From a virus, in the IMG/VR virus record IMGVR_UViG_3300043640_000025, positions 1 through 47,507 of that record: 47,507 nt of DNA; one strand, given 5' to 3'. Position 1 is the stretch's first letter. Every line of letters begins with the position of its first letter. Under the pieces are notes generated by a model. That model worked only from the letters and a program-made list of their open reading frames with translations. It searched no databases and was not told the DNA's origin. Shown here piece by piece: positions 1,460 through 20,935 of the stretch. The position numbers were made by a program, and so were the translations under genes.

Positions 1460-1800
1460 GCTGCCATCCCTTTCACCGTGATCAGGCCTTTAGCAACCAT
1501 TCGAAGCTGTGTCCGGACAACAGCGCGCAAGGCATAGAAGTTGCGATCCGATTCGTACTGCGCGCGATCGGCCGTCTCGGCATGGGTCGGCGAGTCCGTC
1601 CACCGATTGCATTCGGAACAGGCGAAGCAGGCTTGCAGGTCAGTTGGCTTGAACGACCCGCCGCAATCGCCCAGCCACCGGAGATGCGCGAGGATCACCG
1701 TCTCGGGGTTGTGGTTGCAGACGCCGGCAACCTGCATCGTGCAGCCTTCGCCCTGGGCAGACTTGCGTAGGGGCGTCATCTTGGGGCGGGAACGTTTCAT
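1456..1800 (-). CDS. DUF1364 / YbcO-like putative nuclease
   Basis: 114 aa. C..Q..GVCNHNPETVILAHLR...KP.D...ACFACSECN matches the Cys pattern I recall for E. coli DLP12 YbcO. Confidence 0.6.
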   Translation of the reverse strand: MKRSRPKMTPLRKSAQGEGCTMQVAGVCNHNPETVILAHLRWLGDCGGSFKPTDLQACFACSECNRWTDSPTHAETADRAQYESDRNFYALRAVVRTQLRMVAKGLITVKGMAA

Positions 1801-2312
1801 GCGGCGTCCTCATACCATGGACGCACAAGGCCATGATTCGGGTGAAACCCGTGGTGGGCAGACGCCGCATCGCGAGCAGCTATTGCCTCTGCCTTGGATT
1901 CATACAATCCAATATGCTTCTCACGGCCATCGACCATGATCCTGGCGCGCCACTTGTTCCGGATCGCCATCCATGAAACACCGCAAGCACCACTAGTGTT
2001 ATTCACTTTCAGACGTATGTTTCGACCATTCTCCGCGTTCGTTGCTTCGCGAAGATTCGCCCACCGATTATTTCCACGATCACCATCAAGGTGGTCGACC
2101 TGCTCGTCTGGCATCTTTCCGGTCATGTAGAGAAATGCAAGGCGATGAGCCCGATAGCGCCCTCTGCAGACTCCGATGTAGCGGTAACCGCTAGCCTTTA
2201 CGTCACCACACTCCTGCCCTTCTTGGCAGCGCCACTGCCCAATGATCCGCGTAAATACGCCCGTTTCCGGGTCATATCGAAGATTCGCCTTCAACTCGGC
2301 CTGAGTAATCAT
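1797..2312 (-). CDS. HNH homing endonuclease with AP2 DNA-binding domain
   Basis: Start ATG at 2312 forms an ATGA overlap with the ninB stop. VDHLDGDRGNNRWANLREATNAENGRN is an HNH_3 motif; GVSW...KWRARI...HIGLYESKAEAIAARD is AP2-like. Visibly AT-richer DNA. Confidence 0.75.
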   Translation of the reverse strand: MITQAELKANLRYDPETGVFTRIIGQWRCQEGQECGDVKASGYRYIGVCRGRYRAHRLAFLYMTGKMPDEQVDHLDGDRGNNRWANLREATNAENGRNIRLKVNNTSGACGVSWMAIRNKWRARIMVDGREKHIGLYESKAEAIAARDAASAHHGFHPNHGLVRPWYEDAA

Positions 2313-2755
2313 GCAGCCCTCGCCTGCTCTGACCAGAATGGATCTGGTGATGGAACATCGATCCCAGCCGATGCCGCGATGCGCTGCACGGTGTTGTAGA
2401 ACTCTGCGAACTCGGCGGTGGGCATGACATCGCGTTCGCCGTTCTCGTTCGTCGTCGTGGTACGGAACGGCCGACGCCTGACCTCGCCCATCACCTCGCG
2501 ATCCACCCATCCGAAGAATTTTCCGCAAAAGGATTCGTGCAGGTCGTCGATATCGTCGCCCGTCACAGCCTTGATCGCTGGATAGGCCACCCCGAATAAG
2601 GCCCTGTTTTGTACGTCGGTCCGCTCCTTCCTCGCCTCCTTGATCTCGATCCGCCAGGACTTCCCCGCAGGCAAGCGATCGACGAAGGCATGGACGTTGG
2701 CGCGGACGGTTTCGCGTTCCGGGGCATTGGCATTGAGGGTGTATTTTTGGCTCAT
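2309..2755 (-). CDS. ninB: NinB/Orf-family recombination mediator
   Basis: 148 aa. RTDVQNRALFG...TTTNE...MPTAEFAEFYNTVQRIAA..GI parallels lambda Orf (SLDQNRKLW...STSRMRVGEFAELLELIQAFG). Confidence 0.6.
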   Translation of the reverse strand: MSQKYTLNANAPERETVRANVHAFVDRLPAGKSWRIEIKEARKERTDVQNRALFGVAYPAIKAVTGDDIDDLHESFCGKFFGWVDREVMGEVRRRPFRTTTTNENGERDVMPTAEFAEFYNTVQRIAASAGIDVPSPDPFWSEQARAA

Positions 2756-3921
2756 GCGACCTCCTTTAGGTAGGCCTCGCGGATACGCGCGTCGGCAATG
2801 GTCGTGTAGTCCGCGTCCATCTCTATGCCGATGAAATCAAAGCCTTCAAGCACAGCGCCCCGCCCCGTACTGCCTGAGCCCATGAAGGGGTCAAGGATCG
2901 TTCCACCCGCAGGCGTGACTAGGCGGCACAGGTAGCGCATGAGTTCGGTGGGTTTGACGGTTGGATGGGTGTTTAGACGCTCGGTTTTTCCGCGCTGGTA
3001 CGCGTTATCGGCAGCGACGGCCGGGCCGTCGCTAGTTGTGTCTGGCGTCAGATAGCCGCATCCAGCTTCGCGCTCAGCTTTGCTTGGCTTGGCGCAATAG
3101 AAGAAACGCGCAGCACTTCCAGCGTCGAGTCGTCGCGCGCCCGGCTTCATGGCGAAACCTACGGCGCCGACGTTGGCACTATCTGCGGATGGCTCACCGT
3201 CGCGGCCGTAGCGCATGACTCCATAGATGCCTCGTGTCTTGCAGTCGCCGCTTGTCTTGGCGTTGGCGATCTGACCCGGCGCGGATGGGAATGCAGTAAT
3301 GACTTCATCACTGCCATCGTGGATCACGTTGGCGGGCCAGCGGCCGAGCCGTGAAGGAGGATTGCGGTCGACGGTATCGCCCACCATGCCCGGAGCAGCC
3401 GAGAGCAGCCGAGAGCATCTTTGATGGGCCGCCCAACCCGGCGTCCCAATCTCAGGCACCGCGCCATTCGGCCACTCGACACGGCAAACGTTGATATTTA
3501 TCGCCCCTGTGCCATGGGCCAGCACGTTGGCGGCCACGGTTCCTATAAGCGGCTTGCGCGCCATGACGATAGGCTCATGCGCAGGCTTCAACGCAGTGCC
3601 GCCCCACGCACCGTTGTGCGACTTCGGAAAGCCCGACCCGTAGATCCACATAATCTGGTCGCGAATCTCCCAACCAGCATCCTCGATAGCCGATGCCATG
3701 CGGTGATACGTCCGTGAGCCACCGAACGATAGGAGGTGCCCGCCCGGCTTGATGACGCGGAGCATTTCGGTCCAGAACTCGACGCCAGGGACGCCTTTGT
3801 CCCACGCTTTACCCATGAAGCTAAGGCCATAGGGTGGATCGGTGACGATGGAGTCGATACTGTTGTCAGCCATCGTCCGCAACACTTCGCGGCAGTCGCC
3901 CGTCATGATTTGGTAGCTCAT
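2752..3921 (-). CDS. DNA methyltransferase (N6-A/N4-C, beta-class motif order)
   Basis: Motif IV DPPYG near the N-terminus and motif I DPFMGSGSTG near the C-terminus. Start at 3921 (ATGA overlap with the upstream stop, GGAG 9 nt upstream). About 389 aa, longer than typical family members. Confidence 0.85.
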   Translation of the reverse strand: MSYQIMTGDCREVLRTMADNSIDSIVTDPPYGLSFMGKAWDKGVPGVEFWTEMLRVIKPGGHLLSFGGSRTYHRMASAIEDAGWEIRDQIMWIYGSGFPKSHNGAWGGTALKPAHEPIVMARKPLIGTVAANVLAHGTGAININVCRVEWPNGAVPEIGTPGWAAHQRCSRLLSAAPGMVGDTVDRNPPSRLGRWPANVIHDGSDEVITAFPSAPGQIANAKTSGDCKTRGIYGVMRYGRDGEPSADSANVGAVGFAMKPGARRLDAGSAARFFYCAKPSKAEREAGCGYLTPDTTSDGPAVAADNAYQRGKTERLNTHPTVKPTELMRYLCRLVTPAGGTILDPFMGSGSTGRGAVLEGFDFIGIEMDADYTTIADARIREAYLKEVA

Positions 3922-4133
3922 GCCACCAACTCCCATGCATGTGTCGGCCGGCCCATCCGCGAGCTACGCTTCACGACGAGGCCGGTCCTCACCATCTTTA
4001 GGTCCTTGAGTTCGGCGATCGCGAGGTAGACGTTGTGGCGTGTCACTGACAATTTCTCGGCCAATTCAGCGACACAGGCAGGCGCCTCGGTCAGAGCATC
4101 GATCACCCGAAGTGCAGTGCGTTCCGTCCTCAT
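3918..4133 (-). CDS. Winged-helix DNA-binding protein
   Basis: 71 aa. VAELAEKLSVTRHNVYLAIAELKDLKMV is HTH-like (MarR/ArsR style). Translationally coupled on both sides. Confidence 0.55.
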   Translation of the reverse strand: MRTERTALRVIDALTEAPACVAELAEKLSVTRHNVYLAIAELKDLKMVRTGLVVKRSSRMGRPTHAWELVA

Positions 4134-6911: not shown

Positions 6912-6975
6912 ATAAGCATACTTATACGTCGTGTGCAAGCATGCTTATGAAGCACGCTTATATGCTTGGAAGCAT
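6912..6975. promoter_or_regulatory. OR-like operator cluster (14-bp palindromes around AAGCATGCTT)
   Basis: ATAAGCATACTTAT 6912-6925, GCAAGCATGCTTAT 6935-6948, TGAAGCACGCTTAT 6948-6961, and the palindrome ATGCTTGGAAGCAT 6962-6975. All lie between the divergent cro-like and cI-like starts. Confidence 0.6.
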
Positions 6976-7642
6976 GACTAACCTGGCCGCAAGAATCATC
7001 GAGGCGAGAACCGAGGCCGGCATTCTGGAGCCCGCTGAATTGGCCCGCCGAGTAGGTGTTCGCCCTGCCGCCGCCTATCAGTGGGAGTCTGGCGCGACCA
7101 AGAGCCTCAAAGACACGACGCTAGTGGAGCTAGCTGATGCTCTTGGCGTCACCGCTCGATGGCTCGCCACTGGCCGCGCCCCAAAGCGAGAGTCTCAGCC
7201 CGTCGCGCGATTTGAGATACCCGAGGGCTACGTTCGCCTTCCACTCTTGGAGGGGTTCGCAGGCATGGGAAGGGGGGAATATGTCGGGGACTATCCGGAA
7301 ATCGTTAATTTCGTAGAAGTCACCAGGGAATGGGCGGAACGCAAGCTACACGGTGTTCCCATGGCGGCCATTCGCGTCATAACCGGACGTGGCCAGAGCA
7401 TGAAGGGCATGTACGACGACGGGGATCTGATCTTCATCGACGCTAGGGTCAAGTCCTTTGTGGACGATGCAGCCTATGTCTTTCGGTACGGCGGCCGGGT
7501 CCAGGTTAAGCGGCTGCAATGGCGCGGCGATCGCCTACGCATCCTAAGTGCCAACCCGTCCTATGAGGCCCTGGATGTCGACGAGGCCGACTTGGAGATC
7601 GGTGGAATGGCCCTTGCTGCGTGGACGCTTAGGGATTTTTGA
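6974..7642 (+). CDS. CI-type prophage repressor (HTH_XRE plus S24 LexA-like peptidase)
   Basis: HTH segment AELARRVGVRPAAAYQWESG. Candidate Ala-Gly cleavage site in GFAGMG. Ser in GRGQSM and Lys in QVKRL. Start uncertain (6941, 6947, 6962 or 6974). Confidence 0.85.
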   Translation: MTNLAARIIEARTEAGILEPAELARRVGVRPAAAYQWESGATKSLKDTTLVELADALGVTARWLATGRAPKRESQPVARFEIPEGYVRLPLLEGFAGMGRGEYVGDYPEIVNFVEVTREWAERKLHGVPMAAIRVITGRGQSMKGMYDDGDLIFIDARVKSFVDDAAYVFRYGGRVQVKRLQWRGDRLRILSANPSYEALDVDEADLEIGGMALAAWTLRDF

Positions 7643-7678: not shown

Positions 7679-8104
7679 ATGAAAGCAAGTACCATCCTGA
7701 TGAGTATGGCTATGCTTATAGCACTACCCATATCGGCGCAGGCTTTGCAGCAAACCGATCACGACACCTCTCGGATCGCCGAACATAAAGAGTTCATTCG
7801 AGGGTGCCGCTCGGCTACGCAATATATGGACGATCAAGCCTACACTCTAAGTGGAAATGAAGATTCGACGATCACCATCGCATGCATCGCGTATGTAAAC
7901 GGGATCAGCGAAGGTTTCGCAGCAGCAGGAAAAGTCACTGTCGGCGGAGTTCAAATATGCGTCGATGCGAAGGCGACTCCGGGACGAATTATTCGTCGCA
8001 TCGTTTCGTTGGACACGGATGATCCGCAGCACTGGGAAAAGGCATCGACCAGGATCACCGTAATTGCTGCCCTTGCTCAGCTCTATCCGTGCAATAAGTT
8101 GTAA
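7679..8104 (+). CDS. Secreted/periplasmic protein, Rap1a/Tai-like immunity-protein candidate
   Basis: Signal peptide MKASTILMSMAMLIALPISAQA. Cys pattern C.AYVNGI...IC(n)...ALAQLYPC resembles the Rap1a family as I recall it. AT-richer DNA. Sits directly behind cI and before a terminator. Confidence 0.45.
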   Translation: MKASTILMSMAMLIALPISAQALQQTDHDTSRIAEHKEFIRGCRSATQYMDDQAYTLSGNEDSTITIACIAYVNGISEGFAAAGKVTVGGVQICVDAKATPGRIIRRIVSLDTDDPQHWEKASTRITVIAALAQLYPCNKL

Positions 8105-8128
8105 GCCTCTTTCTTCGAAAACCACCAC

Positions 8129-8150
8129 CCCGCTCGCAGCGGGTTTTTTT
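8129..8150 (+). terminator. Rho-independent terminator of the cI operon
   Basis: cccgct-cgc-agcggg stem-loop followed by T7. Confidence 0.7.
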
Positions 8151-8202
8151 GTGCCTGGCAAAAGAAAAATAAACGGTGGCTGAACACATGTAAGTCAGCT
8201 TA

Positions 8203-8238
8203 GTAAGCATGCTTGCATTGAGATATAAGTATGCTTAT
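8203..8238. promoter_or_regulatory. OL-like operator pair
   Basis: GTAAGCATGCTTGC 8203-8216 and ATAAGTATGCTTAT 8225-8238. The second is the exact reverse complement of the 6912-6925 site. Confidence 0.6.
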
Positions 8239-8241
8239 AGT
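8213..8241 (+). promoter_or_regulatory. Candidate PL-like early promoter
   Basis: TTGCAT - 17 nt - TATAGT. Both hexamers overlap the two operator palindromes, and the first gene starts at 8280. Confidence 0.35.
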
Positions 8242-8279
8242 CTCTCCACGCCGAGGAAGTCCCCGGCCTGGAGACAGCC

Positions 8280-8456
8280 ATGAACATCACGAATGCTTCC
8301 GCCCTGATCACCGCCGCGCTCGCCAGTGGCACCATTGATGCAGCGACCGCCCTCCGCGCGCAGTCCGCCATCCGTGAATCGTCCTACTACGGCCTTCGCA
8401 TGACCGCCGACGATCGTCAGCGGATGCTCGCCAACCGCTTCGGCATCAGCGCCTAA
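8280..8456 (+). CDS. Hypothetical small protein (58 aa), first gene of the rightward early operon
   Basis: GGAG 6 nt upstream of the ATG; stop 3 nt before the next ATG. Not in the ORF track (under 60 aa). Preferred over the antisense ORF 8235..8492. Confidence 0.5.
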   Translation: MNITNASALITAALASGTIDAATALRAQSAIRESSYYGLRMTADDRQRMLANRFGISA

Positions 8457-8459
8457 GCC

Positions 8460-8675
8460 ATGAAGAATCCGAGCCCCCTCATTACCGGTCACGGCCTTGG
8501 CATGACGCCAGCCGACGCCCCGCTGGAATTCGTCAGCGACCAGCTGCGTATCGACGCCGCCCGCGCCGGCATCTCCGCCCTGAAGGCCAAGAACGCCGAG
8601 GCATCAGCTTTGAGCGCCGCTCTCGCCGAAGACGATGTTCCCTCCCGCGAACTGTGGATTGGAGACCTGTCATGA
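8460..8675 (+). CDS. Hypothetical protein
   Basis: 71 aa. The stop overlaps the next start (ATGA). Confidence 0.5.
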   Translation: MKNPSPLITGHGLGMTPADAPLEFVSDQLRIDAARAGISALKAKNAEASALSAALAEDDVPSRELWIGDLS

Positions 8676-8842
8676 ACCAGCGCCAGATCAACGCGACCAA
8701 TCGCCTGCTCCAGTCCTGCGAAATGATCCTCGACAGCATGAGCCGCACCGAGCAGCCGGCGATGTATGCCCGCCTCCGGTCCGACGTTCTCGCGGTCAAG
8801 GCGCAGATGGAGCCGTCCGAGCAGATGGAGGTACTGGCATGA
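8672..8842 (+). CDS. Hypothetical protein (56 aa)
   Basis: ATG at 8672 with GGAG 7 nt upstream. ATGA overlaps at both ends. Confidence 0.5.
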   Translation: MNQRQINATNRLLQSCEMILDSMSRTEQPAMYARLRSDVLAVKAQMEPSEQMEVLA

Positions 8843-9153
8843 ACCAGACCCTCCGCCAGCGCAATGCCGTCCGCTCGCCCCGTAGCGACCTCCGCGCAAA
8901 TGATCGTCGTCGTTTCGGCTGCGCGCCGATGAGCCCGGTCCGTCATGCCGACGACAGCCGTCCGGGCCACACGATGCTCATGATCCTCCTTGTCATCGGA
9001 TCGGTCATCGGTGCGTCACAGATCGATACCGGCTCGAAGGAGCACGCCCGCATCCGCGCTGATCGGATGGAGTGTGCCGCCCACCACCAGTCCTTCGTCA
9101 TGGTCAATGATGGCGATAGGGATGACGTGATGTGTGTGGGGGAAGCGCAGTGA
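8839..9153 (+). CDS. Hypothetical membrane protein
   Basis: Start MNQTLRQ with GGAGG upstream. One hydrophobic helix, MLMILLVIGSVIGA. Confidence 0.5.
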   Translation: MNQTLRQRNAVRSPRSDLRANDRRRFGCAPMSPVRHADDSRPGHTMLMILLVIGSVIGASQIDTGSKEHARIRADRMECAAHHQSFVMVNDGDRDDVMCVGEAQ

Positions 9154-9482
9154 CTCGCCACGCCCAGGCCACTTGCTACGCATCCCGCTCCGCCGGCGAG
9201 GAAGCCATTCGCTTCGGCACCGAGTCAGCTGCCGCCGAGTACTTGGCCGAACTCACGGACATCGAACTGCATGATCCGCGCAACTGGGAAGAAGGCCTTG
9301 CGTCATCCATCGACCGTGATTCCGCGACCGGCCGCGAGATCGTCCGCCTCTTCATGATCGGTGATCTGCTCGCTGCTGCAACGCTGATGAACAAACAGGT
9401 CCGTCCGTGGTGCAAGCAGGTTGCCGAGGACGCGATTGCGAAAGAAGCCGATATCGCTGCGCGCGAATGGGACGGCCAATGA
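9150..9482 (+). CDS. Hypothetical protein
   Basis: GTG at 9150 (GTGA overlap, GGGGGAAG upstream). An alternative ATG is at 9132. Confidence 0.5.
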   Translation: MTRHAQATCYASRSAGEEAIRFGTESAAAEYLAELTDIELHDPRNWEEGLASSIDRDSATGREIVRLFMIGDLLAAATLMNKQVRPWCKQVAEDAIAKEADIAAREWDGQ

Positions 9483-9622
9483 CCATCTTCCGTTGCCGCA
9501 TCGGCCGTGAAACCGCCCCTGGCGTCGTCCAGACGCTTACCTACATCGGACCCTTTGAAAGCATCCCGGCTGGTTGGTCGATGGTGATGCGGCGGGTCGT
9601 TAACTCAAGGAAATCTGCATGA
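9479..9622 (+). CDS. Hypothetical small protein (47 aa)
   Basis: ATGA overlaps at both ends (9479 and 9619). Confidence 0.4.
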   Translation: MTIFRCRIGRETAPGVVQTLTYIGPFESIPAGWSMVMRRVVNSRKSA

Positions 9623-10527
9623 AGATCGAAATTAAGAATCGCTGGACCGGTGCCGTGCAGTTTGCTTGCGAACTGACCGCTGAGATTGCCGACAAGTCGT
9701 ATTCAGTCCAGCTTGGCTTTGCCGCAACGACGGCGTTAGCCGACGGTGCGAACCTGCGCGATGCGGACCTGGGCGGTGCGAACCTGCGCGATGCGAACCT
9801 GCGCGGTGCGAACCTGCGCGATGCGGACCTGGGCGATGCGGACCTGGGCGGTGCGAACCTGGGCGATGCGAACCTGCGCGGTGCGAACCTGGGCGGTGCG
9901 AACCTGCGCGGTGCGAACCTGCGCGATGCGGACCTGGGCGGTGCGAACCTGGGCGGTGCGAACCTGGGCGATGCGAACCTGGGCGATGCGAACCTGCGCG
10001 ATGCGAACCTGCGCGGTGCGAACCTGGGCGATGCGGACCTGGGCGGTGCGGACCTGGGCGATGCGAACCTGCGCGATGCGAACCTGCGCGGTGCGGACCT
10101 GCGCGATGCGGACCTGGGCGATGCGAACCTGGGCGGTGCGAACCTGGGCGGTGCGGACCTGGGCGGTGCGAACCTGGGCGGTGCGAACCTGCGTTCATTC
10201 AAAGCCGACCTCTGGATGACGCTTACCGATAACTGGCATGAAGTTCCGGCCCTGGTCACCGCCCTCCGCGAAGGCCGCGTCAACGGTTCGACCTATACCG
10301 GGTCTTGCGCCTGCCTGGTCGGCACCATCGCGAACGCCAAGGGCATCAGCTACGAAACCCTTGCACACGATTCGAATAACCCCGCCGAACAGTGGTTCCT
10401 GATGATCAAGACCGGCGACACACCGGACTCGGATACCGGTGGCGGATTCGCCTGCAAGAAGGCCCTTGAGTGGACGCTCGAATGGTGCGCGCTGAATGGT
10501 GTCGCCTTGCCGGAAGTCGCGGCGTGA
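9619..10527 (+). CDS. Pentapeptide-repeat protein with a Cys-containing C-terminal domain
   Basis: 302 aa. 30 consecutive (G/D)A(N/D)L(R/G) pentapeptides, followed by about 110 aa of non-repeat sequence (GSCACLVGTIANAKG...). Confidence 0.9.
   Translation: MKIEIKNRWTGAVQFACELTAEIADKSYSVQLGFAATTALADGANLRDADLGGANLRDANLRGANLRDADLGDADLGGANLGDANLRGANLGGANLRGANLRDADLGGANLGGANLGDANLGDANLRDANLRGANLGDADLGGADLGDANLRDANLRGADLRDADLGDANLGGANLGGADLGGANLGGANLRSFKADLWMTLTDNWHEVPALVTALREGRVNGSTYTGSCACLVGTIANAKGISYETLAHDSNNPAEQWFLMIKTGDTPDSDTGGGFACKKALEWTLEWCALNGVALPEVAA
9745..10194 (+). repeat. 30 tandem copies of a 15-bp unit G[G/A]TGCG[A/G]ACCTG[C/G]GC
   Basis: Counted unit by unit. Variation is confined to unit positions 2, 7 and 13, plus the last base of unit 30. 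Confidence 0.95.
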
Positions 10528-10602
10528 TCGTCCTCATCTTCCTTCTCCAGACCTTTGCGTAACCCAATTTATCACGCTGGTTTCGGCCAGCAAAGGAATT
10601 CC

Positions 10603-11370
10603 ATGAACGCCCTTGCTGTGCATTCCACCTCAACCGGCATGACCAATAGCGCCCGCATGAATGCGCTGGTGCCAACCTCGATGTCGGAGGCTATGCACCT
10701 GGCCGACATCATGTCGCAGGCAAACCTTTTGCCGGACCACCTCCGGGGTAAGCCTGGCGACTGCTTGCTCGTCATCATGCAGGCCCAGCGATGGGGTATG
10801 GACCCCGTGTCTGTCGCGCAATGCACTTCGGTGGTTCGTGGAAAGCTGTGCTACGAGGGAAAGCTCGTCGCTGCCGCGCTCTATGCGACTGGGTCGGTCG
10901 AGGGGCGCATCAAGTACACATACAGCGACACCGGCACCAAGCGAAGGGTCGTTGTCTCGGCAATCCCGCGCGGCGAAACGGAATACGTCAGCATCGAAGG
11001 CACAGTCGGCCAGTGGGCAACCGATAACAATAACTGGACGCAGAGTCCTGACGACATGCTCGCCTATCGCGGGGCTCGCCAGTGGGCGCGTCGCCACGCG
11101 CCGGAAGCCCTCCTTGGCGTCTATACCCCCGATGAACTCGAAGATACGTCGCCGACCCAGGCCACTGTCGTTTCCGTCACGACCGTCGAGTACCCGGTAG
11201 CCGACTTCGATAAGAACCTGCCCGCCTGGTTGAACGCGATCGTTACTGGCCGCCGCACTGCCGACGACATCATCGCCATGGCCGAGACGAAGGGTCGCCT
11301 GACCGAAGACCAGAAATCCAAGATTCGCGCCAAGCCGGCGCAGACCGCATCCGAGGGGAATGACCAGTGA
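10603..11370 (+). CDS. recT: RecT-family single-strand annealing protein
   Basis: ATG at 10603 with AAAGGAA upstream. MHLADIMSQANLLPDHLRGKPGDCLLVIMQAQRWGMDP is RecT-like. Followed by the exonuclease, so a recombination pair. Confidence 0.65.
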   Translation: MNALAVHSTSTGMTNSARMNALVPTSMSEAMHLADIMSQANLLPDHLRGKPGDCLLVIMQAQRWGMDPVSVAQCTSVVRGKLCYEGKLVAAALYATGSVEGRIKYTYSDTGTKRRVVVSAIPRGETEYVSIEGTVGQWATDNNNWTQSPDDMLAYRGARQWARRHAPEALLGVYTPDELEDTSPTQATVVSVTTVEYPVADFDKNLPAWLNAIVTGRRTADDIIAMAETKGRLTEDQKSKIRAKPAQTASEGNDQ

Positions 11371-13136
11371 AGATTCTCAACCTTATCCAAGGCACGCCTG
11401 ATTGGCACCAGCACCGCGCTACCCACTTCAACGCCAGTGACGCGCCCGCCATGCTTGGCGTATCCCCGTACAAGACGCGTGACCAGCTCATCCGTGAAAA
11501 GGCGACGGGCGTGGCGCCTGACATCGATCCATCGACACAGCGACGCTTCGATGACGGCCATCGCTACGAGGCGCTTGCTAGGCCCATTGCGGAGCGGATC
11601 ATCGGCGAGGACTTGTTCCCATGCGTAGGCGAGGACGGCAATCTATCGGCTAGTTTCGACGGCCTGACGATCCTTGGCGACGTGGCATTCGAGCATAAGT
11701 CGCTCAACGACGACCTTCGCGCGACCTTCGCTGAAATCGACACCATGGCGCCGGAATACCGTGAAGGCATCAGCGCAGGGGACCACTTGGCCGAACACTA
11801 CCGTGTCCAGATGGAGCAGCAGTGCATGGTATCGGGCGCGGAGCGCGTGCTCTTCATCGCCTCGAAGTGGAGCGGTGACGATCTGGTCGAAGAGCGTCAC
11901 TGCTGGTACGGCACCGACGCAACGCTCCGTGCGCGGATCATTGCCGGCTGGGATCAGTTCGAAGATGACGTTTCGGCATACCAGCACGTCGAGGTGTCGG
12001 CGCCGGCTGCCGTAGGCCGCGCCCCGGAGCAGCTGCCGACCCTTCGCGTCGAAGTCACAGGCATGGTCACGGCCAGCAACCTCGCCGAATTCCGTGCTAA
12101 TGCCAGGACGGTTCTCAGCAAGATCAACCGGGATCTTCAGACCGACGAGGACTTCGCCAATGCCGATCAGGCGGTGAAGTGGTGCAAGGGTGTCGAGGAA
12201 AGGCTCGAACTCACGAAACAACAGGTCTTGAGCCAGACGGCTGATATTGAGGCCGTTTTCCGGACCATGGATGAGGTGGCAGAAGAAACCCGACAGGTCC
12301 GCCTCGACCTGGATCGCCTGGTCAAGGCTGAGAAGGAACGTCGCCGCGGTGAAATCGTTGCGGATGGCGTGGGCGCCGTTCGTTCGCACTACGACAGCAT
12401 CAACGCCACGCTTGGCCAGCATGCGATACAGGTCCCGGCCGGCTTGCAGAGCATCATCGGCGAGGCCATCAAGGGCAAGAAGACCCTGACCAGTATCCGT
12501 GAGGCCGCAAACGGCGCTGCGGCAAACGCGAAGATATCTGCTAGCCAGGTCGCTGAGCGCGTGCGCGGCAATGTCGCGGTCTTGGCCGAGTATCCGGACC
12601 ATGCTCACCTTTTCGCTGATCGCGTGCAGCTGTGCGCGTCGAAGGAACCCGCCGACCTGCGCAACCTTGCGTTGGCCCGCATCGCCGAACTTCGTGAGAA
12701 GGAAGATCGTCAGCGTGAATCCGATCGCGAGCGCATCCGCCAGGAAGAGGTAGACAAACTGGCACGGGAAGCCGAGGCGGTAGCGGCGGCGTCCGCTCCC
12801 CCGGCGCCGGTCGATCCCATCGTGGAAACGGCGGCATCCGACCATCCCGAATCATTCAATCACTCCGAACCTAAGGCTATCGAGTCTCCGGCGCCCTTCG
12901 ATGTCTTCGCGCCGAAAGCCACCCAGTCCACGCGCGCAACGGTCAAGCTCGGTGACATCAACGCGCGCATCGCGCCCCTTTCGATCACCGCTGAGGGCCT
13001 TAGCTCCCTGGGCTTCACCCCGGTTGGGACGGACCGCGCCGCGAAGCTTTATTCCGTCGTCGATCTTCCGGCGATCTACCGTGCCATGTGGCGCGTAATC
13101 GAAGGCGCTGCGGCGCCCGCCCGGAAGGTGGGCTGA
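11367..13136 (+). CDS. YqaJ/lambda-Exo-type exonuclease with a roughly 350-aa C-terminal extension
   Basis: N-terminus [36 protein letters not shown] and FEHKS match the YqaJ fold. GTG start with a GTGA overlap. The rest is coiled-coil and Ala/Pro-rich. Confidence 0.75.
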
Positions 13137-13138
13137 CC

Positions 13139-13621
13139 ATGGCGCGCGGAGTCAACAAGGTAATCATCGTCGGCAACCTCGGCGCGGACCCGGAAACCCG
13201 GTACACCACCAGCGGCACGGCGATCACCAGCCTGCGTCTCGCCACCAGCGAGAACTGGACCGACAAGCAGTCGGGCGAGAAGCAGGAACGCACCGAGTGG
13301 CACCGCGTGAAGCTGTTCGGCAAGCTCGCCGAAATCGCGGGCGAGTACCTGAAGAAAGGTCGCCAGGTCTATATCGAAGGCTCGCTTCGCACCGACAAGT
13401 ACACCGATAAGGATGGGATCGAGCGCTACTCGACGGACATCATCGCCAATGAGATGCAAATGCTCGGCGGGAATCCTGGCGGGGAAGGATCGCAAGGTTC
13501 GCAGCGCCAGGGTCAGGGTGGCGGATACCGCGAGCCACGCAACGACGGCGATCGCCAGCCGCCCCGTCAGTCGCCGACAGATAACGGCAATTTCGATCCT
13601 GACGACGATTTGCCCTTCTGA
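13139..13621 (+). CDS. ssb: Single-stranded DNA-binding protein
   Basis: [19 protein letters not shown]...WHRV..FGKLAE OB-fold motif, Gly/Gln-rich linker and acidic tail DDDLPF. Confidence 0.95.
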
Positions 13622-13629
13622 GGTGACCC

Positions 13630-13824
13630 ATGAATGGCACTCCCGACATGTTCTCCGGCTTCTTCGACAACAACGAAACCAAGCACCGCGAACACTGGAA
13701 CAACGGCGTCAAGGGACGCCGCGCGCATCGGTCGACCATCAGCCCGAGCAATCCGTGGAAGGAGTTGCGGGCTCCATGGGGAACATATGCGGACCTTCCT
13801 GCTAACGCGGCACAAGCGGCCTAA
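13630..13824 (+). CDS. Hypothetical protein
   Basis: 64 aa with GAGGTG upstream. Confidence 0.45.
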   Translation: MNGTPDMFSGFFDNNETKHREHWNNGVKGRRAHRSTISPSNPWKELRAPWGTYADLPANAAQAA

Positions 13825-13844
13825 CCCCGCCCAAGGAGAACGAG

Positions 13845-14189
13845 ATGGAGAGTGAGAATGGTGGTGTGGATGTGAGGCTTGCGTCGTTCATCGCGACCCG
13901 TGATCGTCGCATTGCGAAGTCCCAACCGTGGTCGCCGACGCCATTGCTCGAATCGTTCCGCGAGCTTCTGTCGAAGGGAGAAACGATAGTTGGTGGACGG
14001 GCATCGTGTGGAGGAAAGGTAGATCCAACGTGGGTGATCTTCACTTCATGGAACGAGGTGGTGCGGAAGGCCCGGCAGTTCGGGTACGAAATTACCGTGA
14101 CAGACATCAAGCATGGCAATAGCTGGGCAACGAAGGCTGGTGGCTTCTGGAGCGAGAGTGAATACAAACTCGCAGCGAGGGAATCGTGA
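13845..14189 (+). CDS. Hypothetical protein
   Basis: 114 aa with a strong RBS, AAGGAGAACGAG-ATG. Start of the AT-richer island. Confidence 0.6.
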   Translation: MESENGGVDVRLASFIATRDRRIAKSQPWSPTPLLESFRELLSKGETIVGGRASCGGKVDPTWVIFTSWNEVVRKARQFGYEITVTDIKHGNSWATKAGGFWSESEYKLAARES

Positions 14190-14976: not shown

Positions 14977-15013
14977 CCACCTCGCGCTTCGTTGATTGTT
15001 TGGGGGTGGTGGG

Positions 15014-15733
15014 GTGAGCCGAATTGAAGTCATTGGCAACGCCACTCTTTACCTAGGTGACTGCCGAGAGATTATGCCGACACTTCCTTCGGTGGGGGCG
15101 ATCATCACGGACCCACCGTATAACGTGACGGAAGTAAACGGTAGAGACGGTACGAAGCCTGGAAAGGTTAAGAGGAAGGACGGGTCTTACGCTGAGGTGG
15201 TTAGAAACTTTGGCGATTGGGATAGGAACTTTTCCGTCGACTGGTTTCTAAATCTCGCATTCGAGATATTGCCTCATCGGGGAAATCTCATAGCGTTTAC
15301 ATCTGACAGGCTTTTGTCTAATTACATATCTGGTCCGATGAAGCATATGCGGACCATGCTTTGGAGGAAGACTAATTCGCCAGGATCGTTCAATGCGAAT
15401 TACATATCGTGTGTCGAATTCGCTGTTTGGCTAAGCAAAGAAGCCCCTGGCGTCTTCAACGGATCTCGATCATTGCAGCCTATATTCGACTACCCGAGCG
15501 TTCACGGTAAACATCGATTACATCCAACACAAAAACCATTGAAGCTTATGGACGATATTGTTCGACTTCATACGAATGAGTCATTCGCCGTCCTTGACCC
15601 ATTCATGGGAAGCGGAACAACTGGCGTTTCTTCACTGTCGGCAGGAAGAACATTCATAGGCATTGAGTCATGCCGGGAGCATTTTTACGACGCATGTAGG
15701 CGCATTGAGTCATGCGTCACCACTCACGCCTAA
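15014..15733 (+). CDS. DNA methyltransferase (beta-class N6-A/N4-C), orphan
   Basis: DPPYN motif IV near the N-terminus and DPFMGSGTTG motif I near the C-terminus. GTG at 15014 with a GGTGG RBS; the ORF track starts it at TTG 14996. Confidence 0.85.
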   Translation: MSRIEVIGNATLYLGDCREIMPTLPSVGAIITDPPYNVTEVNGRDGTKPGKVKRKDGSYAEVVRNFGDWDRNFSVDWFLNLAFEILPHRGNLIAFTSDRLLSNYISGPMKHMRTMLWRKTNSPGSFNANYISCVEFAVWLSKEAPGVFNGSRSLQPIFDYPSVHGKHRLHPTQKPLKLMDDIVRLHTNESFAVLDPFMGSGTTGVSSLSAGRTFIGIESCREHFYDACRRIESCVTTHA

Positions 15734-15751: not shown

Positions 15752-15943
15752 ATGACCGGCATAATCAAGTACGCGTGGCGAGAGATCACCAACGGCTATG
15801 CAAGGGTGAGTAACGCAACCGGTGAAATTGTCGCCGAGATTCACTGTTGTTCAGCCTCCCGGTATGGACCGCATACCTACGGCACGTCTAAGTTTATCGA
15901 TGTCGAATCAGCCAAGAAGGCTTGCGAAAAGGATTGGCCATGA
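15752..15943 (+). CDS. Hypothetical protein
   Basis: 63 aa between the methyltransferase and the 408-aa ORF. Confidence 0.5.
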   Translation: MTGIIKYAWREITNGYARVSNATGEIVAEIHCCSASRYGPHTYGTSKFIDVESAKKACEKDWP

Positions 15944-17166
15944 CCAATGAATTTACGAGTGAGCAGGTGTTGGCGATGGCTGACACGCTTGATGAGGTTC
16001 GTTTCGACAAGATCGCCGCCATGCTCCGCTCCCTCCTATACGCGCGCACCGCAGCGGCGGGGGTGAATGTTGTAGCAACGCTTCATCTTCACCACGAAGC
16101 CGTACAAAGCAAAGACAAGTGGCGCGTTACGGGTGTTCAGGAGGCCATTTCGGATATCGACCTTCCTTCCGGCGAATACCCTCTCTACCTCCAAGCCGAC
16201 CGGCCTGTAGATAAAAATGTTGGCGCACTGTTAGGCACGCAAGGGGCTATAGACGTTGAAATCAAGCCAGCTCAATCCTTGGCTGATGTGGCCGTGAAAT
16301 TTCTTAGTGGTCTTGACCCGACTTGTAAGGGAATCAACTGCACGTTCAGTGATACTAACGGGAACAGGCATAGTTCTGAATGTCGATTTGAGTATGCCCG
16401 TAATTTGGCTAGCGGCATCGCTAGTGTTACTTCTGGTGTGACCGTTCCAGACCACATAGAAAACATTAAGTGGCGTGGTGAAATTATAAATTTGGTGAGA
16501 TTGGCGAGTGTGGATGTGGACGCTAGTCGTTATCGAAAACTCATCGCCGCTACCGATATGCCGTTCCCATTGTTGAGTGTATGCGACGACCCGGAGAATA
16601 ATCCGGTGCATAGGTACGGGCGTGAGCGCATCGACTCACTGATTGATGGACTCGACATCGAAACACCAGCCGTACCCACCACACCGAAGAGTGTTGCCCC
16701 GGACATTTCCGAACTGGCGAGCGTCCCGGGAAGCGCATGCCCGACGTGCAAGCAGTCGTTGCATGTGGCGATCGGGGACAACGAGGGCAAGCGGCAGGGG
16801 GACGCCATTGCCGCAACCCTAGGGGCGGACGGCGACAATATCGACGACGTGTTTCGCAAGGCGCGAATGCTGGCGAGTGTGGCGAAGAGGGATGTGGGTT
16901 GGCTGAAGGATAAGTATTCCAAAGAAAGCTATTACAGCGCGATTTCTTGGGTTCTCGGATATCTCAACGGCACAGGTGACAACGGGTCGACGATGTACAA
17001 GGAAATACTTCAGGCCAATGACGAAGACGAGCTAGTTGCCTATGTTCGAAAGAACGGCGAAATGCGGTTCACTGGCCTTGATCGTTTCCTGAGAAATCGT
17101 AGGGATCACGCCGCCATGCTCGCCTCCGCACCCACCCCACCTACGGAGGGCGGGGAAAATGGCTAA
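15940..17166 (+). CDS. Hypothetical large protein (408 aa)
   Basis: ATGA-coupled start at 15940. No family recognised. SDID...(about 35 aa)...IDVEIK could be a PD-(D/E)xK-like motif, but the evidence is weak. Confidence 0.6.
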   Translation: MTNEFTSEQVLAMADTLDEVRFDKIAAMLRSLLYARTAAAGVNVVATLHLHHEAVQSKDKWRVTGVQEAISDIDLPSGEYPLYLQADRPVDKNVGALLGTQGAIDVEIKPAQSLADVAVKFLSGLDPTCKGINCTFSDTNGNRHSSECRFEYARNLASGIASVTSGVTVPDHIENIKWRGEIINLVRLASVDVDASRYRKLIAATDMPFPLLSVCDDPENNPVHRYGRERIDSLIDGLDIETPAVPTTPKSVAPDISELASVPGSACPTCKQSLHVAIGDNEGKRQGDAIAATLGADGDNIDDVFRKARMLASVAKRDVGWLKDKYSKESYYSAISWVLGYLNGTGDNGSTMYKEILQANDEDELVAYVRKNGEMRFTGLDRFLRNRRDHAAMLASAPTPPTEGGENG

Positions 17167-18346: not shown

Positions 18347-18737
18347 GCAGATATGGCCCGACGTGATGGATCTGATGACCGCGGCGAAGTACCTCGGCTA
18401 TCACCCCGTCACCCTCAGGGAATGGAAGCGTAAGGGCGAAGGTCCGCCGGGCCGAAAGGTCGGAGGCCGCTGGCGTTTTCTGAAGGCCGCGCTCGACAAC
18501 TACCTCATTGGACAGAAAGCACCCGCATGGCCCGCCAACCCTACACCCTCGAACCTCGTGGCAAGAAAGGCATCTACTTCGCCAGGTTCACCGCGCCAGA
18601 CGGACGCCGCATATCGCGAAGCTCTGGGACTTCCGACCGAAGCCTCGCCGCCGAGTGGGCGTCAAGGTTCCATGCGGAGCATTACCGGGTCGCGCGGCTC
18701 GGCGACAAGCCGCGGCGGCTCTGGACGGACGCGGTAG
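18333..18737 (+). CDS. xis: Excisionase-type HTH protein (MerR/HTH_17-like)
   Basis: GGAGG RBS. LMTAAKYLGYHPVTLREWKRKGEGPPGRKVGGRWRF is an excisionase-family motif. The frame stays open to 18737, overlapping int by 211 nt, so the functional end is uncertain. Confidence 0.6.
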   Translation: MSAAEQIWPDVMDLMTAAKYLGYHPVTLREWKRKGEGPPGRKVGGRWRFLKAALDNYLIGQKAPAWPANPTPSNLVARKASTSPGSPRQTDAAYREALGLPTEASPPSGRQGSMRSITGSRGSATSRGGSGRTR

Positions 18738-19630
18738 TCGCGTGGAAGGCTGACCATCTTCATAAGCGAAGCCTGAGCAAAGACCAGCACAACCTGCGAT
18801 GGCTGAGCCCGTACCTCGAATACAAGTATCTGGACGAGATCAATGGGGACCTGCTGGCCGCGGTCGCGTCAGCACGGAGGGCGGAGCCCCGGGACAAGAG
18901 GCGTCGGAAGGATGGCACGACGTTCTCGGATGCCCTGACCAGCCAGTCGACGGTCGACAAGATGCTCGCGCTGATCCGGTCGATACTTCGGGACGCCAGT
19001 GAACGGGGATGGCTGGACAATGCCCCGTCGATCAAGCTGACCCACCCGGAATCCGAGGACTATCGGTGGCTGACCCGAGAGGAAGCTGCAGCCCTGCATG
19101 AGGAACTGGCGTACCATCTGCGGCCACTGTTCCTGTTCTCCCTAGCCACAGGCCTACGGGAGCAGAACGTCATGCGGCTGGAATGGTCGAAGGTCGATAT
19201 CGAGCGACGGGTGCTATGGGTCAAGGCGGCGGCGGCCAAGGGAAAGAAGCCGATCGGCATACCTCTCAATCGGGACGCGATCGCCGTACTCGTCGCCCAG
19301 AAGGACCAGCACCGGCAGTGGGTGTTCCCTGCCCCTGTCAAGCCCGGTAAACGGCAGGCCGAGCCCTATGACCGGGCCAACAACCACGGCTTCAAGGCGG
19401 CACAGGTCCGCGCCGGCATTGCACCACTGCGATGGCACGATCTGCGGCACACCTGGGCAAGCTGGCACGTCATGGCTGGGACCTCGCTACGCGCCCTCAT
19501 GGAGCTTGGCGGTTGGCGGTCCTACAAGTCGGTCTTGAGGTACGCTCACCTCTCCCCAGAGCATCTGGCCAGCGATGCGGCAAGGGTCGAGGGACTTGCG
19601 CCACTTTTGCGCCAGAAGACTGGCACCTGA
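18527..19630 (+). CDS. int: Tyrosine integrase
   Basis: ARQPYTLEPRGKKGIYFARF N-terminus. Catalytic region HDLRHTWASWHVMAG...LGGWRSYKSVLRYAHL (R-H-R-Y). Adjacent to attP. Confidence 0.93.
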   Translation: MARQPYTLEPRGKKGIYFARFTAPDGRRISRSSGTSDRSLAAEWASRFHAEHYRVARLGDKPRRLWTDAVVAWKADHLHKRSLSKDQHNLRWLSPYLEYKYLDEINGDLLAAVASARRAEPRDKRRRKDGTTFSDALTSQSTVDKMLALIRSILRDASERGWLDNAPSIKLTHPESEDYRWLTREEAAALHEELAYHLRPLFLFSLATGLREQNVMRLEWSKVDIERRVLWVKAAAAKGKKPIGIPLNRDAIAVLVAQKDQHRQWVFPAPVKPGKRQAEPYDRANNHGFKAAQVRAGIAPLRWHDLRHTWASWHVMAGTSLRALMELGGWRSYKSVLRYAHLSPEHLASDAARVEGLAPLLRQKTGT

Positions 19631-20189: not shown

Positions 20190-20251
20190 GGCCGTAGGGT
20201 ACGGCTGGAGTGTCTCAGGGGCGGGGACACGACCCATCCGAGATAGCTAAG

Positions 20252-20935
20252 ATGTGCAGGTATTCCACCAAGCCAAGGAAAGAAGTGAGCCTCTACGCGA
20301 ATTTTCTGCAGAATCAGGGAAGGGTGATCCATAAGTGGAAGCACTACTTCCCCATTTATGAGCGCCACTTCGGGCCATGGATAAATAAAACCGTCACCAT
20401 TCTGGAGATCGGTTGCGGTAGCGGCGGATCGCTACAGATGTGGAAAAGGTATTTCGGACCATTCGCGACGATCATCGGCATCGATATTGATCCGAAGTGC
20501 CAGGACTTCGAAGAGGACCAGATCCATATAAGGATCGGTGGGCAGCAAGACCATGCCTTCCTCCAGAGCGTGATTGACGAATTCGGCGTTCCTGACATCG
20601 TCATCGACGACGGTAGTCACGTCATGAGCCACATTGCCTCGACGTTCCAAGCCCTGTACCTGAAGCTTCCGAAAAACGGCGTCTACCTCGTCGAAGACCT
20701 GCACACCGCCTACTGGCCAGAATACGAGGGCGGGGCCCATCGTCCCGGTAGCTTCATCCAGTTTTCAAAATCCATGATCGACGAGCTGAACTGGGAACAC
20801 GCGCGCGGAGAGGTAGCGGAAACCGAGTTCGGGAAGACGACAGTATCTATGCACTTCTACGACAGCATCGTCGTATTCGAGCGAGGCATCCATACTAGAA
20901 AGCGGGCTCCGCGCGTTGGCGACGAAGCCCTCTAA
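20252..20935 (+). CDS. Class I SAM-dependent methyltransferase (CmcI / sugar O-methyltransferase-like)
   Basis: HKWKHYFPIYERHF...ILEIGCGSGGSLQMW...GIDID...IDDGSH...GVYLVEDL motif series. AT-richer. Opposite strand to the tail genes. Start uncertain (GTG 20210 or ATG 20252). Confidence 0.7.
   Translation: MCRYSTKPRKEVSLYANFLQNQGRVIHKWKHYFPIYERHFGPWINKTVTILEIGCGSGGSLQMWKRYFGPFATIIGIDIDPKCQDFEEDQIHIRIGGQQDHAFLQSVIDEFGVPDIVIDDGSHVMSHIASTFQALYLKLPKNGVYLVEDLHTAYWPEYEGGAHRPGSFIQFSKSMIDELNWEHARGEVAETEFGKTTVSMHFYDSIVVFERGIHTRKRAPRVGDEAL

Follow-up and report, generated by a model that had tools for sequence, protein, structure and literature searches.

The described proteins that most resemble the one presented here are the Nostoc pentapeptide-repeat proteins (PRPs) Np275/Np276, Alr5209, and the synthetic "Beta1" solenoids (PDB 4ycq, 4yc5, and 2j8k), in which very regular A(D/N)LXX repeats form a quadrilateral beta-helix. 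Consensus pentapeptide solenoids already serve as designable scaffolds. MfpA, Qnr, AlbG, and McbG belong to the same fold class and are acidic rods of DNA diameter for which DNA mimicry has been proposed; their repeats are degenerate and fixed in number (about 180 to 220 aa for Qnr and MfpA), and they carry a short C-terminal dimerization helix, with loops A and B in Qnr. In gene position, the nearest counterpart is lambda Gam, a DNA mimic and RecBCD inhibitor, which is likewise acidic and encoded early-left, directly upstream of the genes for an annealing protein and an exonuclease (gam-bet-exo). With these systems we compare a PRP gene at positions 9619 to 10527 (plus strand) of IMG/VR virus record IMGVR_UViG_3300043640_000025, of which positions 1 to 47,507 (47,507 nucleotides; "the window") were analyzed. 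Sequence comparison and structure prediction identify it as an accessory early gene of a temperate tailed phage, encoding an N-terminal cap, a predicted beta-helix, and a helical C-terminal domain with a Cys-x-Cys (CxC) motif. Tentatively, and with some reserve, we read its product as a rapidly retunable decoy or binding rod that would be joined to a constant effector domain.

The repeat array and the predicted protein

The coding sequence (302 aa; 9619 to 10527, stop codon included) is preceded by an AAGGA Shine-Dalgarno-like site at 9607 to 9611 and is supported by the open reading frame (ORF) list, Pfam, full-length homologues, and an AlphaFold2 (AF2) model. It comprises an N-terminal cap (residues 1 to 42; 9619 to 9744) with the motif (I/V)KNR(W/F/Y)TGxV.F, a repeat array (9745 to 10194), and a C-terminal helical domain (residues 193 to 302; 10195 to 10524) delimited by alignments and by its own AF2 model. 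The array consists of exactly 30 head-to-tail 15-bp units in a single register, G[G/A]TGCG[A/G]ACCTG[C/G]GC, encoding (G/D)A(N/D)L(R/G). Tandem Repeats Finder called it at 9744 to 10191 (period 15, 29.9 copies, score 651), and a 30-nt two-unit probe, allowed up to three mismatches, gave 17 matches, all within the array, against 0 expected from shuffled sequence. The base counts are G16/A14 at unit position 2, A21/G9 at position 7, and G17/C13 at position 13; position 15 is C29/T1, with the T in unit 30, and the remaining 11 positions are invariant across the 30 units. All three variable sites are non-synonymous (G/D, N/D, and R/G), and the internal units thus hold three non-synonymous and no synonymous variable columns. 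Codon use is otherwise fixed, Ala being always GCG, Leu always CTG, position-1 Gly/Asp always GGT/GAT, and position-3 Asn/Asp always AAC/GAC. Seven of the eight possible three-site haplotypes are present, and all four combinations occur at each pair of sites; the units are therefore recombinant mosaics of three biallelic sites. An earlier note, made from the sequence alone, had described 30 units at 9745 to 10194 varying only at positions 2, 7, and 13, all non-synonymously, and was right in every detail.

The encoded protein matches Pfam Pentapeptide (PF00805) at an E value of 6e-43 and 144 bits (cutoff, 20.2), above the gathering threshold, which together with the 30 exact-register units places it in the pentapeptide-repeat family. 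The plus-strand frame at 9619 to 10527 is the one that matched Pfam and full-length homologues; other frames over the array were not searched, and the ORFs that they and the opposite strand contain (e.g., 9600 to 10283, minus strand) are by-products of the repeat. The window is one metagenome contig in which the protein was seen once, and the 450-bp array of 15-bp units exceeds a typical short read, so the unit number and order given here stand without an independent check.

The full-protein AF2 model, built with 20 homologues, has a predicted local distance difference test score (pLDDT) of 92.2 and a predicted template modeling score of 0.79 and displays the three parts. The cap is formed by two beta-strands and a helix (E2-7, E13-18, and H28-41), and its R8 is invariant in the 20-sequence alignment. 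A beta-helix of about 7.5 coils follows at approximately residues 43 to 192, with a beta-bridge every five residues across 49 to 190, and the helical C-terminal domain occupies residues 192 to 293. The array is thus predicted to fold as a right-handed quadrilateral beta-helix with four pentapeptides per coil. In the A(D/N)LXX fold, the three residues that vary here point outward; the inward-facing Ala and Leu never vary. All significant Foldseek matches of the full model in the PDB are PRPs, the best being designed consensus solenoids and Nostoc Np275/276 (E = 2e-13; 49 to 53% identity), followed by HetL, MfpA, QnrB1, and AlbG, with EfsQnr also listed. The structural check that the earlier note had proposed thus upheld its beta-helix, with a pLDDT of 92, bridges at five-residue spacing, and matches to PRPs only. 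The acidity it had suspected was likewise found, at a pI of 4.4 and a net charge of −17 (array, −10; C-terminal domain, −6), with no face-specific charge in the window array.

Despite this likeness, the Np275, Alr5209, and Beta1 PRPs lack the N-cap motif and the 110-aa CxC domain, and they are cyanobacterial or designed proteins, not products of phage early genes. The NCBIfam Alr5209 model scores 161 bits against the window PRP by repeat summation over four stretches, not through an equivalent architecture. We know of no report of variable unit number or non-synonymous-only unit variation in these proteins.

The presence of MfpA, QnrB1, AlbG, and EfsQnr among the Foldseek matches, together with the existence of gyrase inhibitors encoded by phages (PMC10886550), speaks for a topoisomerase modulator of the Qnr/MfpA/AlbG type, a gyrase-binding mimic of the T- or G-segment that would slow host replication or guard gyrase from host toxins. 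We regard this as very improbable. The NCBIfam Qnr (NF033086) and MfpA (NF000349) models reach 42.6 bits (cutoff, 240) and 49.3 bits (cutoff, 360), and all Qnr submodels stay below 52 bits against cutoffs of 425 to 500, which excludes membership in either family. The structural matches are led by consensus and cyanobacterial PRPs rather than by Qnr or MfpA, there are no Qnr-type loops, and the C terminus is different. Whereas Qnr and MfpA are fixed in length, the 302-aa window PRP combines an uninterrupted, homogenized array of a kind that varies in length with a large, unrelated C-terminal domain.

That domain, judged by both sequence and model comparisons, is a novel conserved domain without a match to a known sequence family or fold. 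Modeled alone, it has an AF2 pLDDT of 94.3. It directly follows the beta-solenoid and is marked by the motif G-[RK]-[VI]-[DN]-G-S-x-Y-x-G-x-C-A-C-L-V-G-T ... P-x-E-x-[WF]-F ... G-D-x-P ... W. The window protein bears every invariant residue of this motif, including the invariant Cys-Ala-Cys (C230, A231, and C232) at 10306 to 10314. The conserved residues across 137 representatives are D197, E208, G219, G223, Y226, C230, C232, L233, G235, T236, E257, F260, and W285 (window numbering); G219, G223, Y226, C230, and C232 were required by the pattern that selected the 137, so their 100% conservation there is by construction, and the same five are invariant also in separate family alignments, including the 20-sequence one. 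Searches of Pfam, PHROGs, NCBIfam, and PADLOC returned no match to the domain, a PDB profile search returned 0 matches at E ≤ 10, and Foldseek found no fold match (best E = 6.4 in the PDB and 2.1 in BFVD). The earlier note had left these 110 aa unassigned, which holds as far as family and fold are concerned; no other part of the protein is as conserved or as widespread.

Concerted evolution and selection in the family

A protein search with the window PRP gave more than 7,800 matches, among them many full-length homologues with the same three parts (203 to 337 aa; 45 to 66% identity), the closest of which align with the window protein end to end at 54 to 66% identity. A profile of the C-terminal domain found 1,077 clusters (50% identity; E ≤ 1e-3) in 1.84 billion representative proteins, a lower bound on family size, with the domain always C-terminal. 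The same profile found 253 IMG/VR viral contigs and genomes of Alpha-, Beta-, and Gammaproteobacteria, Bacteroidota, Actinobacteria, Gemmatimonadota, Verrucomicrobia, Acidobacteria, Planctomycetes, Paenibacillus, and a cyanobacterium. The family hardly figures in curated collections. Among 50,697 cultured phage genomes, the gene occurs in one, that of Bordetella phage vB_BaM-IFTN6, where it is labeled just "pentapeptide repeat family protein"; the paper describing this phage does not mention the gene. A megablast search of window positions 8000 to 14000 against the same 50,697 genomes gave no match. A tblastn search with the C-terminal domain against 72,556 plasmids also gave none, which argues against a generic plasmid-type anti-restriction gene. 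A full-text literature search found no publication on the cap-solenoid-CxC family, whose members span about 136 to 390 aa and about 1 to 37 units.

Where two units of an array encode the same residue, they do so by the same codon with a probability of at least 0.95 in almost all of some 115 homologous genes and of 0.992 in the window, compared with 0.25 in an ordinary degenerate PRP gene of the same set (L135). One Ala codon and one Leu codon are used throughout each array, and the pair differs between genes (GCG/CTG, GCC/CTG, GCC/CTT, GCC/CTC, GCT/CTG, GCA/TTG, or GCG/CTC); the C-terminal domain of the same gene, unlike its array, has mixed codons. In the sequences compared, this is the pattern of classical concerted evolution. 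The DNA-level homogeneity stressed in the earlier note is thus real and unlike that of ordinary degenerate PRP genes, but it is not peculiar to this gene, being seen in the roughly 115 homologues as well.

When a column was counted as polymorphic if its minor allele occurred in at least two units, 87 distinct arrays yielded 306 such columns, of which 300 are non-synonymous and 6 synonymous (p = 1.5e-29 for an expected synonymous share of 25%); by our estimate from unit site counts, about 40% would be expected to be synonymous if the exterior residues were neutral. Non-synonymous diversity (piN) exceeded synonymous diversity (piS) in 92 of 96 genes, but Nei-Gojobori piS is inflated by degenerate terminal units, and the column-based count was relied on instead. 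The 300 columns against 6 indicate that exterior variation is maintained or repeatedly generated by protein-level selection, with turnover erasing the rest. Together with the family-wide codon uniformity, they strongly support rapid turnover with selection acting on surface residues, and so the evolutionary part of the earlier note's reading. The arrays of the family have a median charge of −0.21 per unit (range, −1.0 to +0.19), and 76% are negative.

Unit number varies among close relatives, as the earlier note had thought it might. Comparison of unit counts in eight proteins of one 90%-identity cluster, whose N-terminal (46 aa) and C-terminal (107 aa) flanks are 100% identical, gave 21, 25, 28, 29, 29, 29, 30, and 30 units; elsewhere, the counts within a cluster are 11, 15, 16, and 21 or range from 8 to 26. 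Some of these differences are clean internal block insertions or deletions. At the DNA level, flanks that are 97 to 100% identical enclose arrays of at least 21 versus 19, 19 versus 10, 30 versus 28, and 14, 26, and 19 units, and the order of units is often reshuffled. Taken with the codon uniformity and the type of column variation, these differences in unit number indicate protein-level diversifying selection on outward-facing residues and, as the putative mechanism of change, in-register slippage or unequal recombination. On one low-GC (38%) viral contig (L044), two genes of the family lie on one strand with about 0.5 kb between them (2 to 688, cut by the contig end, and 1201 to 1890); their C-terminal domains are nearly identical, and their arrays differ (at least 25 versus 17 units).

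The array might instead be an assembly artifact, a collapsed or chimeric repeat, or owe its regularity to templated mutagenesis such as that of a diversity-generating retroelement (DGR). Such doubt is natural for a 450-bp run of 15-bp units that was seen once, in a metagenome contig assembled from short reads, and block deletions between relatives are of a kind that assemblers can create. The same architecture recurs, however, in hundreds of independent assemblies, including megabase isolate contigs, the reading frame is uninterrupted, and the fold prediction is confident. Identical arrays were also recovered from independent samples (L049, L052, and L053; P0026 and P0271), so assemblies of arrays can be reproducible. 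A DGR is excluded by the lack of a second (template) copy of the repeat anywhere in the window, by the lack of a reverse transcriptase among the ORFs scanned, and by the variable sites themselves, which are G/A, A/G, and G/C next to an invariant A at unit position 8, unlike adenine mutagenesis. We give this explanation, in either form, hardly any credence.

In evolutionary mode, the closest analogies are the repeats of transcription activator-like (TAL) effectors and of the group B Streptococcus alpha C protein, in which near-identical units evolve in concert, a few exposed or specificity residues vary, and unit number is variable. The analogy extends to mode only: those units are far longer (34 aa and 82 aa, respectively) and differ in fold and biology, and no recognition code has been shown for the PRP.

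The solenoid and the C-terminal domain are, on sequence comparison, separable modules, since the CxC domain occurs on other solenoids and the cap-plus-array occurs with other C-terminal domains. Hexapeptide (GNARVS) arrays, S-x-F-type pentapeptides, and a decapeptide array are also found in front of the CxC domain, and some proteins carry it after only 1 to 4 pentapeptides; conversely, the same N-cap and regular array are joined to at least two other C-terminal domains. The hexapeptide fusions, on GNARVS/GDARVY arrays (L104, 7160 to 7924; L107 of Burkholderia sp. TSV86, 2795 to 3541; P0137; and P0143), bear a different N-terminal domain and combine another class of beta-solenoid with the effector-like domain. 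Arrays homogenized at the DNA level and preceded by the same N-cap end in other C-terminal domains, for example with the motif IGCQ.H.I.EW, at L173 (2442 to 3101), L132 (2830 to 3435), and L151 (2 to 433). In some relatives (L003, 4721 to 5659 and 6450 to 7607; L026; L049; L052; and L053), the PRP is flanked by two hyperregular repeat proteins, a DUF7666 protein with 9-aa units SAATNTG[DH][RQW] and a DUF6745 protein with QLWDQLRD-type units, so that one early operon holds several solenoid or repeat proteins whose variable positions take few states.

This modularity bears on the possibility that the CxC domain alone is the effector, whether through catalysis, by binding a metal or ligand, or by contacting a universal component of the host or phage, and that the solenoid is a rigid, passive spacer or a solubility/oligomerization scaffold whose length and surface drift through repeat instability. 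Such a division of labor would agree with the conservation of the C-terminal domain, the most conserved part of the protein, in which D, E, Y, C, C, E, F, and W do not vary across the 137 representatives, with its prediction as an independent domain (pLDDT 94), and with its attachment to pentapeptide, hexapeptide, and other repeats or even to just 1 to 4 units. Drift alone, however, cannot explain 300 non-synonymous columns against 6 synonymous ones; the cap-plus-array with different C-terminal domains in the same genomic slot implies that the array has a value of its own; and no catalytic or ligand-binding fold was recognized. We hold this explanation to be distinctly doubtful.

Genomic setting and comparison with Gam

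The window is a temperate myovirus-like genome whose minus strand encodes a portal, protease, major head protein, sheath, and tape measure. Upstream of the PRP gene and on the same strand lies a gene for a CI-like repressor (6983 to 7642, plus strand; Pfam HTH_3 and Peptidase_S24). Operator-like AAGYAYGCTT motifs form one cluster between the Cro-like and CI genes (6913 to 6960), the analogue of oR, and a second at 8204 to 8237, the analogue of oL/pL, which marks the start of the early-left operon containing the PRP gene. These clusters hold all seven matches to the motif in the window, against 0.12 expected by chance. A strong intrinsic terminator at 8129 to 8150 (plus strand), with a six-pair G+C-rich stem followed by T7, lies 3' of a lipoprotein-like ORF and is the analogue of t_imm. 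We read the operator clusters and the terminator as a lambda-like oR/t_imm/oL-pL layout.

Downstream, a RecT-family single-strand annealing protein gene (10603 to 11370, plus strand; Pfam RecT, 6e-14; phrog_561, 4e-60) starts 75 nt past the PRP stop codon and is followed by genes for a 589-aa RecE-like/YqaJ exonuclease (11367 to 13136, plus strand; Pfam YqaJ, 9e-8; phrog_7655, 1e-198) and SSB (13139 to 13621, plus strand; Pfam SSB, 1e-38; the start is probably an internal Met of ORF 13088 to 13621). The YqaJ domain of the exonuclease covers residues 12 to 159 only, and its long C-terminal extension matches phrog_7655 and phrog_16197. An integrase gene (18527 to 19630, plus strand; phrog_1, 1e-54) closes the same-strand early operon at its distal end. 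From the operator clusters, the terminator, and the position of the integrase gene, we place the PRP gene in a CI-controlled early-left operon that runs through small ORFs, PRP, RecT, exonuclease, SSB, and methyltransferase to integrase, the last gene. The placement in an early operon immediately upstream of recT-exo, which the earlier note had drawn from the letters, is supported by the Pfam and PHROG matches of the neighbors and with the operators and terminator.

Several other ORFs of the window deserve mention. Directly after CI, in the slot of lambda rexAB, a 141-aa ORF (7679 to 8104, plus strand) with a signal-peptide- or lipoprotein-like N terminus has no family match and could be a lysogenic-conversion or superinfection-exclusion gene. 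A 414-aa ORF between the methyltransferase and integrase genes (15922 to 17166, plus strand) has no Pfam or PHROG match. Two DNA methyltransferases, a weakly S-adenosylmethionine-methyltransferase-like ORF, and an HNH endonuclease are encoded at 2752 to 3936 (minus strand), 14996 to 15733 (plus strand), 20210 to 20935 (plus strand), and 1797 to 2528 (minus strand). Sequence matches thus suggest that the phage bears several likely anti-restriction or DNA modification functions besides the PRP.

Among relatives, a recombination gene (RecT, ERF, Rad52-type annealing protein, YqaJ, PDDEXK exonuclease, or SSB) lies within four same-strand ORFs downstream of the PRP gene in at least 42 of 101 nonredundant loci and within two ORFs upstream in 3; it is the immediate neighbor in just 9 of the 101. 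Seen from the recombinase, none of the 30 closest RecT relatives has a CxC-domain gene in the 4 kb upstream, a slot filled there by varied small ORFs of which none is recognizably Gam. Two RecT-related loci, L151 and L173, have cap-plus-array PRPs with other C-terminal domains upstream of RecT. As a CxC-domain gene is found in just 1 of 50,697 cultured phage genomes and in none of the 30 closest RecT loci or the 72,556 plasmids, the PRP gene is, on this comparative evidence, accessory.

The same survey bears on the earlier note's proposal of an analogue of Gam, in which the acidic beta-helix would mimic a double-stranded DNA end or duplex and block RecBCD, AddAB, or AdnAB, thereby shielding linear phage DNA and the substrates of RecT and the exonuclease. 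The predicted fold is that of established DNA mimics (MfpA, Qnr, and AlbG), the protein has a net charge of −17 and a pI of 4.4, its gene stands directly upstream of RecT-exo-SSB in an early operon, and the family is phage specific and absent from plasmids. The excess of downstream over upstream recombination genes among the 101 loci and the two RecT-related loci with PRPs upstream point the same way. Yet adjacency to a recombinase holds for a minority of the family, the CxC-domain gene is missing from the 30 closest RecT modules, and the synteny may reflect merely a shared early-left operon. Gam itself, a conserved helical dimer, is small and fixed in size, and neither Pfam, the PDB, nor Foldseek revealed sequence or fold similarity of the window PRP to Gam or to known nuclease inhibitors. 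Membership in the Gam family (PF06064) is excluded, as Pfam gives pentapeptide models only and the C-terminal domain has no PDB fold match better than E = 6.4. A rod whose length varies about 30-fold, in a family in which a quarter of arrays are not acidic, poorly fits a dimensionally precise DNA mimic, and a hypervariable surface under diversifying selection would be unexpected against a conserved nuclease. A Gam-like or DNA-mimic role is plausible and has moderate circumstantial support, but on balance we consider a Gam analogue rather unlikely.

Proposed role and significance

The signature of selection best fits direct conflict with variable host factors, the protein acting as an inhibitor or decoy or evading recognition. 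Units are gained, lost, and reshuffled in register, probably through replication slippage or unequal recombination, a turnover to which the phage's own RecT/exonuclease single-strand-annealing system probably contributes and which is too fast for synonymous differences between units to accumulate. At the three residues that face outward, diversifying or balancing selection at the protein level would keep a few variant states, all single-nucleotide neighbors. As a mildly acidic rod of DNA size, the protein would then offer a binding or decoy surface early in infection or induction, and its targets may be variable host factors acting on phage DNA as it enters or replicates, for example nucleases, restriction enzymes, or other DNA-targeting defenses. 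The constant CxC domain would supply a fixed effector, dimerization, or anchoring function.

As a working hypothesis, a DNA mimic or decoy is the lead idea, favored by the fold, the acidity, early expression, the recurrent place upstream of four non-homologous recombinase families, and the restriction to phages. Ocr and ArdA, acidic and elongated early proteins of mobile elements that decoy DNA-binding defense enzymes, provide a functional analogy only: their folds differ, their lengths are fixed, their charge density is much higher, and ArdA is common on plasmids, in contrast to the absence of the PRP family from the 72,556 plasmids searched.

Several observations weigh against a binding or decoy rod. 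Members with 1 to 4 units imply that a long rod is not essential to the core function of the family, and 23 of 96 arrays are neutral or slightly positive. The excess identity at a lag of four units is just +0.044 ± 0.016, which is no convincing period-4 (per-face) pattern of variable residues, such as might be expected of a face-specific binding surface. Related genes were pooled in the polymorphism counts, which limits their independence, and part of the variation in unit number and order between assemblies could be short-read misassembly. The family offers no homologue of known function, and the binding or decoy role is one that we infer.

A broader form of the proposal, which we consider speculative and on the whole unlikely, is that temperate phages possess here a natural system of combinatorial diversity. 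A ladder of exposed residues would be redealt by in-register shuffling, possibly through the adjacent annealing protein and exonuclease, with the CxC domain or other swappable C-terminal domains as the invariant effector. Such shuffling would be functionally comparable to repeat diversification in TAL effectors or variable lymphocyte receptors and, if it takes place, would yield new binding or evasion surfaces on a constant scaffold for use in phage-host conflict.

The pentapeptide-repeat fold itself is known; new here are the cap-solenoid-CxC architecture, the conserved C-terminal domain, and the family-wide mode of evolution. Auxiliary proteins encoded beside phage recombinases can be host-specific recombineering enhancers, and the "h/e" auxiliary proteins of Burkholderia RecET are not described as PRPs (PMC8313284). 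If the role proposed above holds, the family would represent a widespread, so far undescribed class of phage early proteins, of at least 1,077 clusters, carried by prophages of Proteobacteria, Bacteroidota, Actinobacteria, Acidobacteria, Gemmatimonadota, Planctomycetes, Verrucomicrobia, and Firmicutes. Its rigid scaffold would evolve by array shuffling under strong diversifying selection, a signature that usually marks direct molecular conflict with the host. The gene would offer a tractable natural model of concerted evolution, in which the mutational substrate lies beside its likely catalyst, the annealing-protein/exonuclease pair, and it points to a candidate counterdefense or host takeover module and to a new CxC-motif domain.

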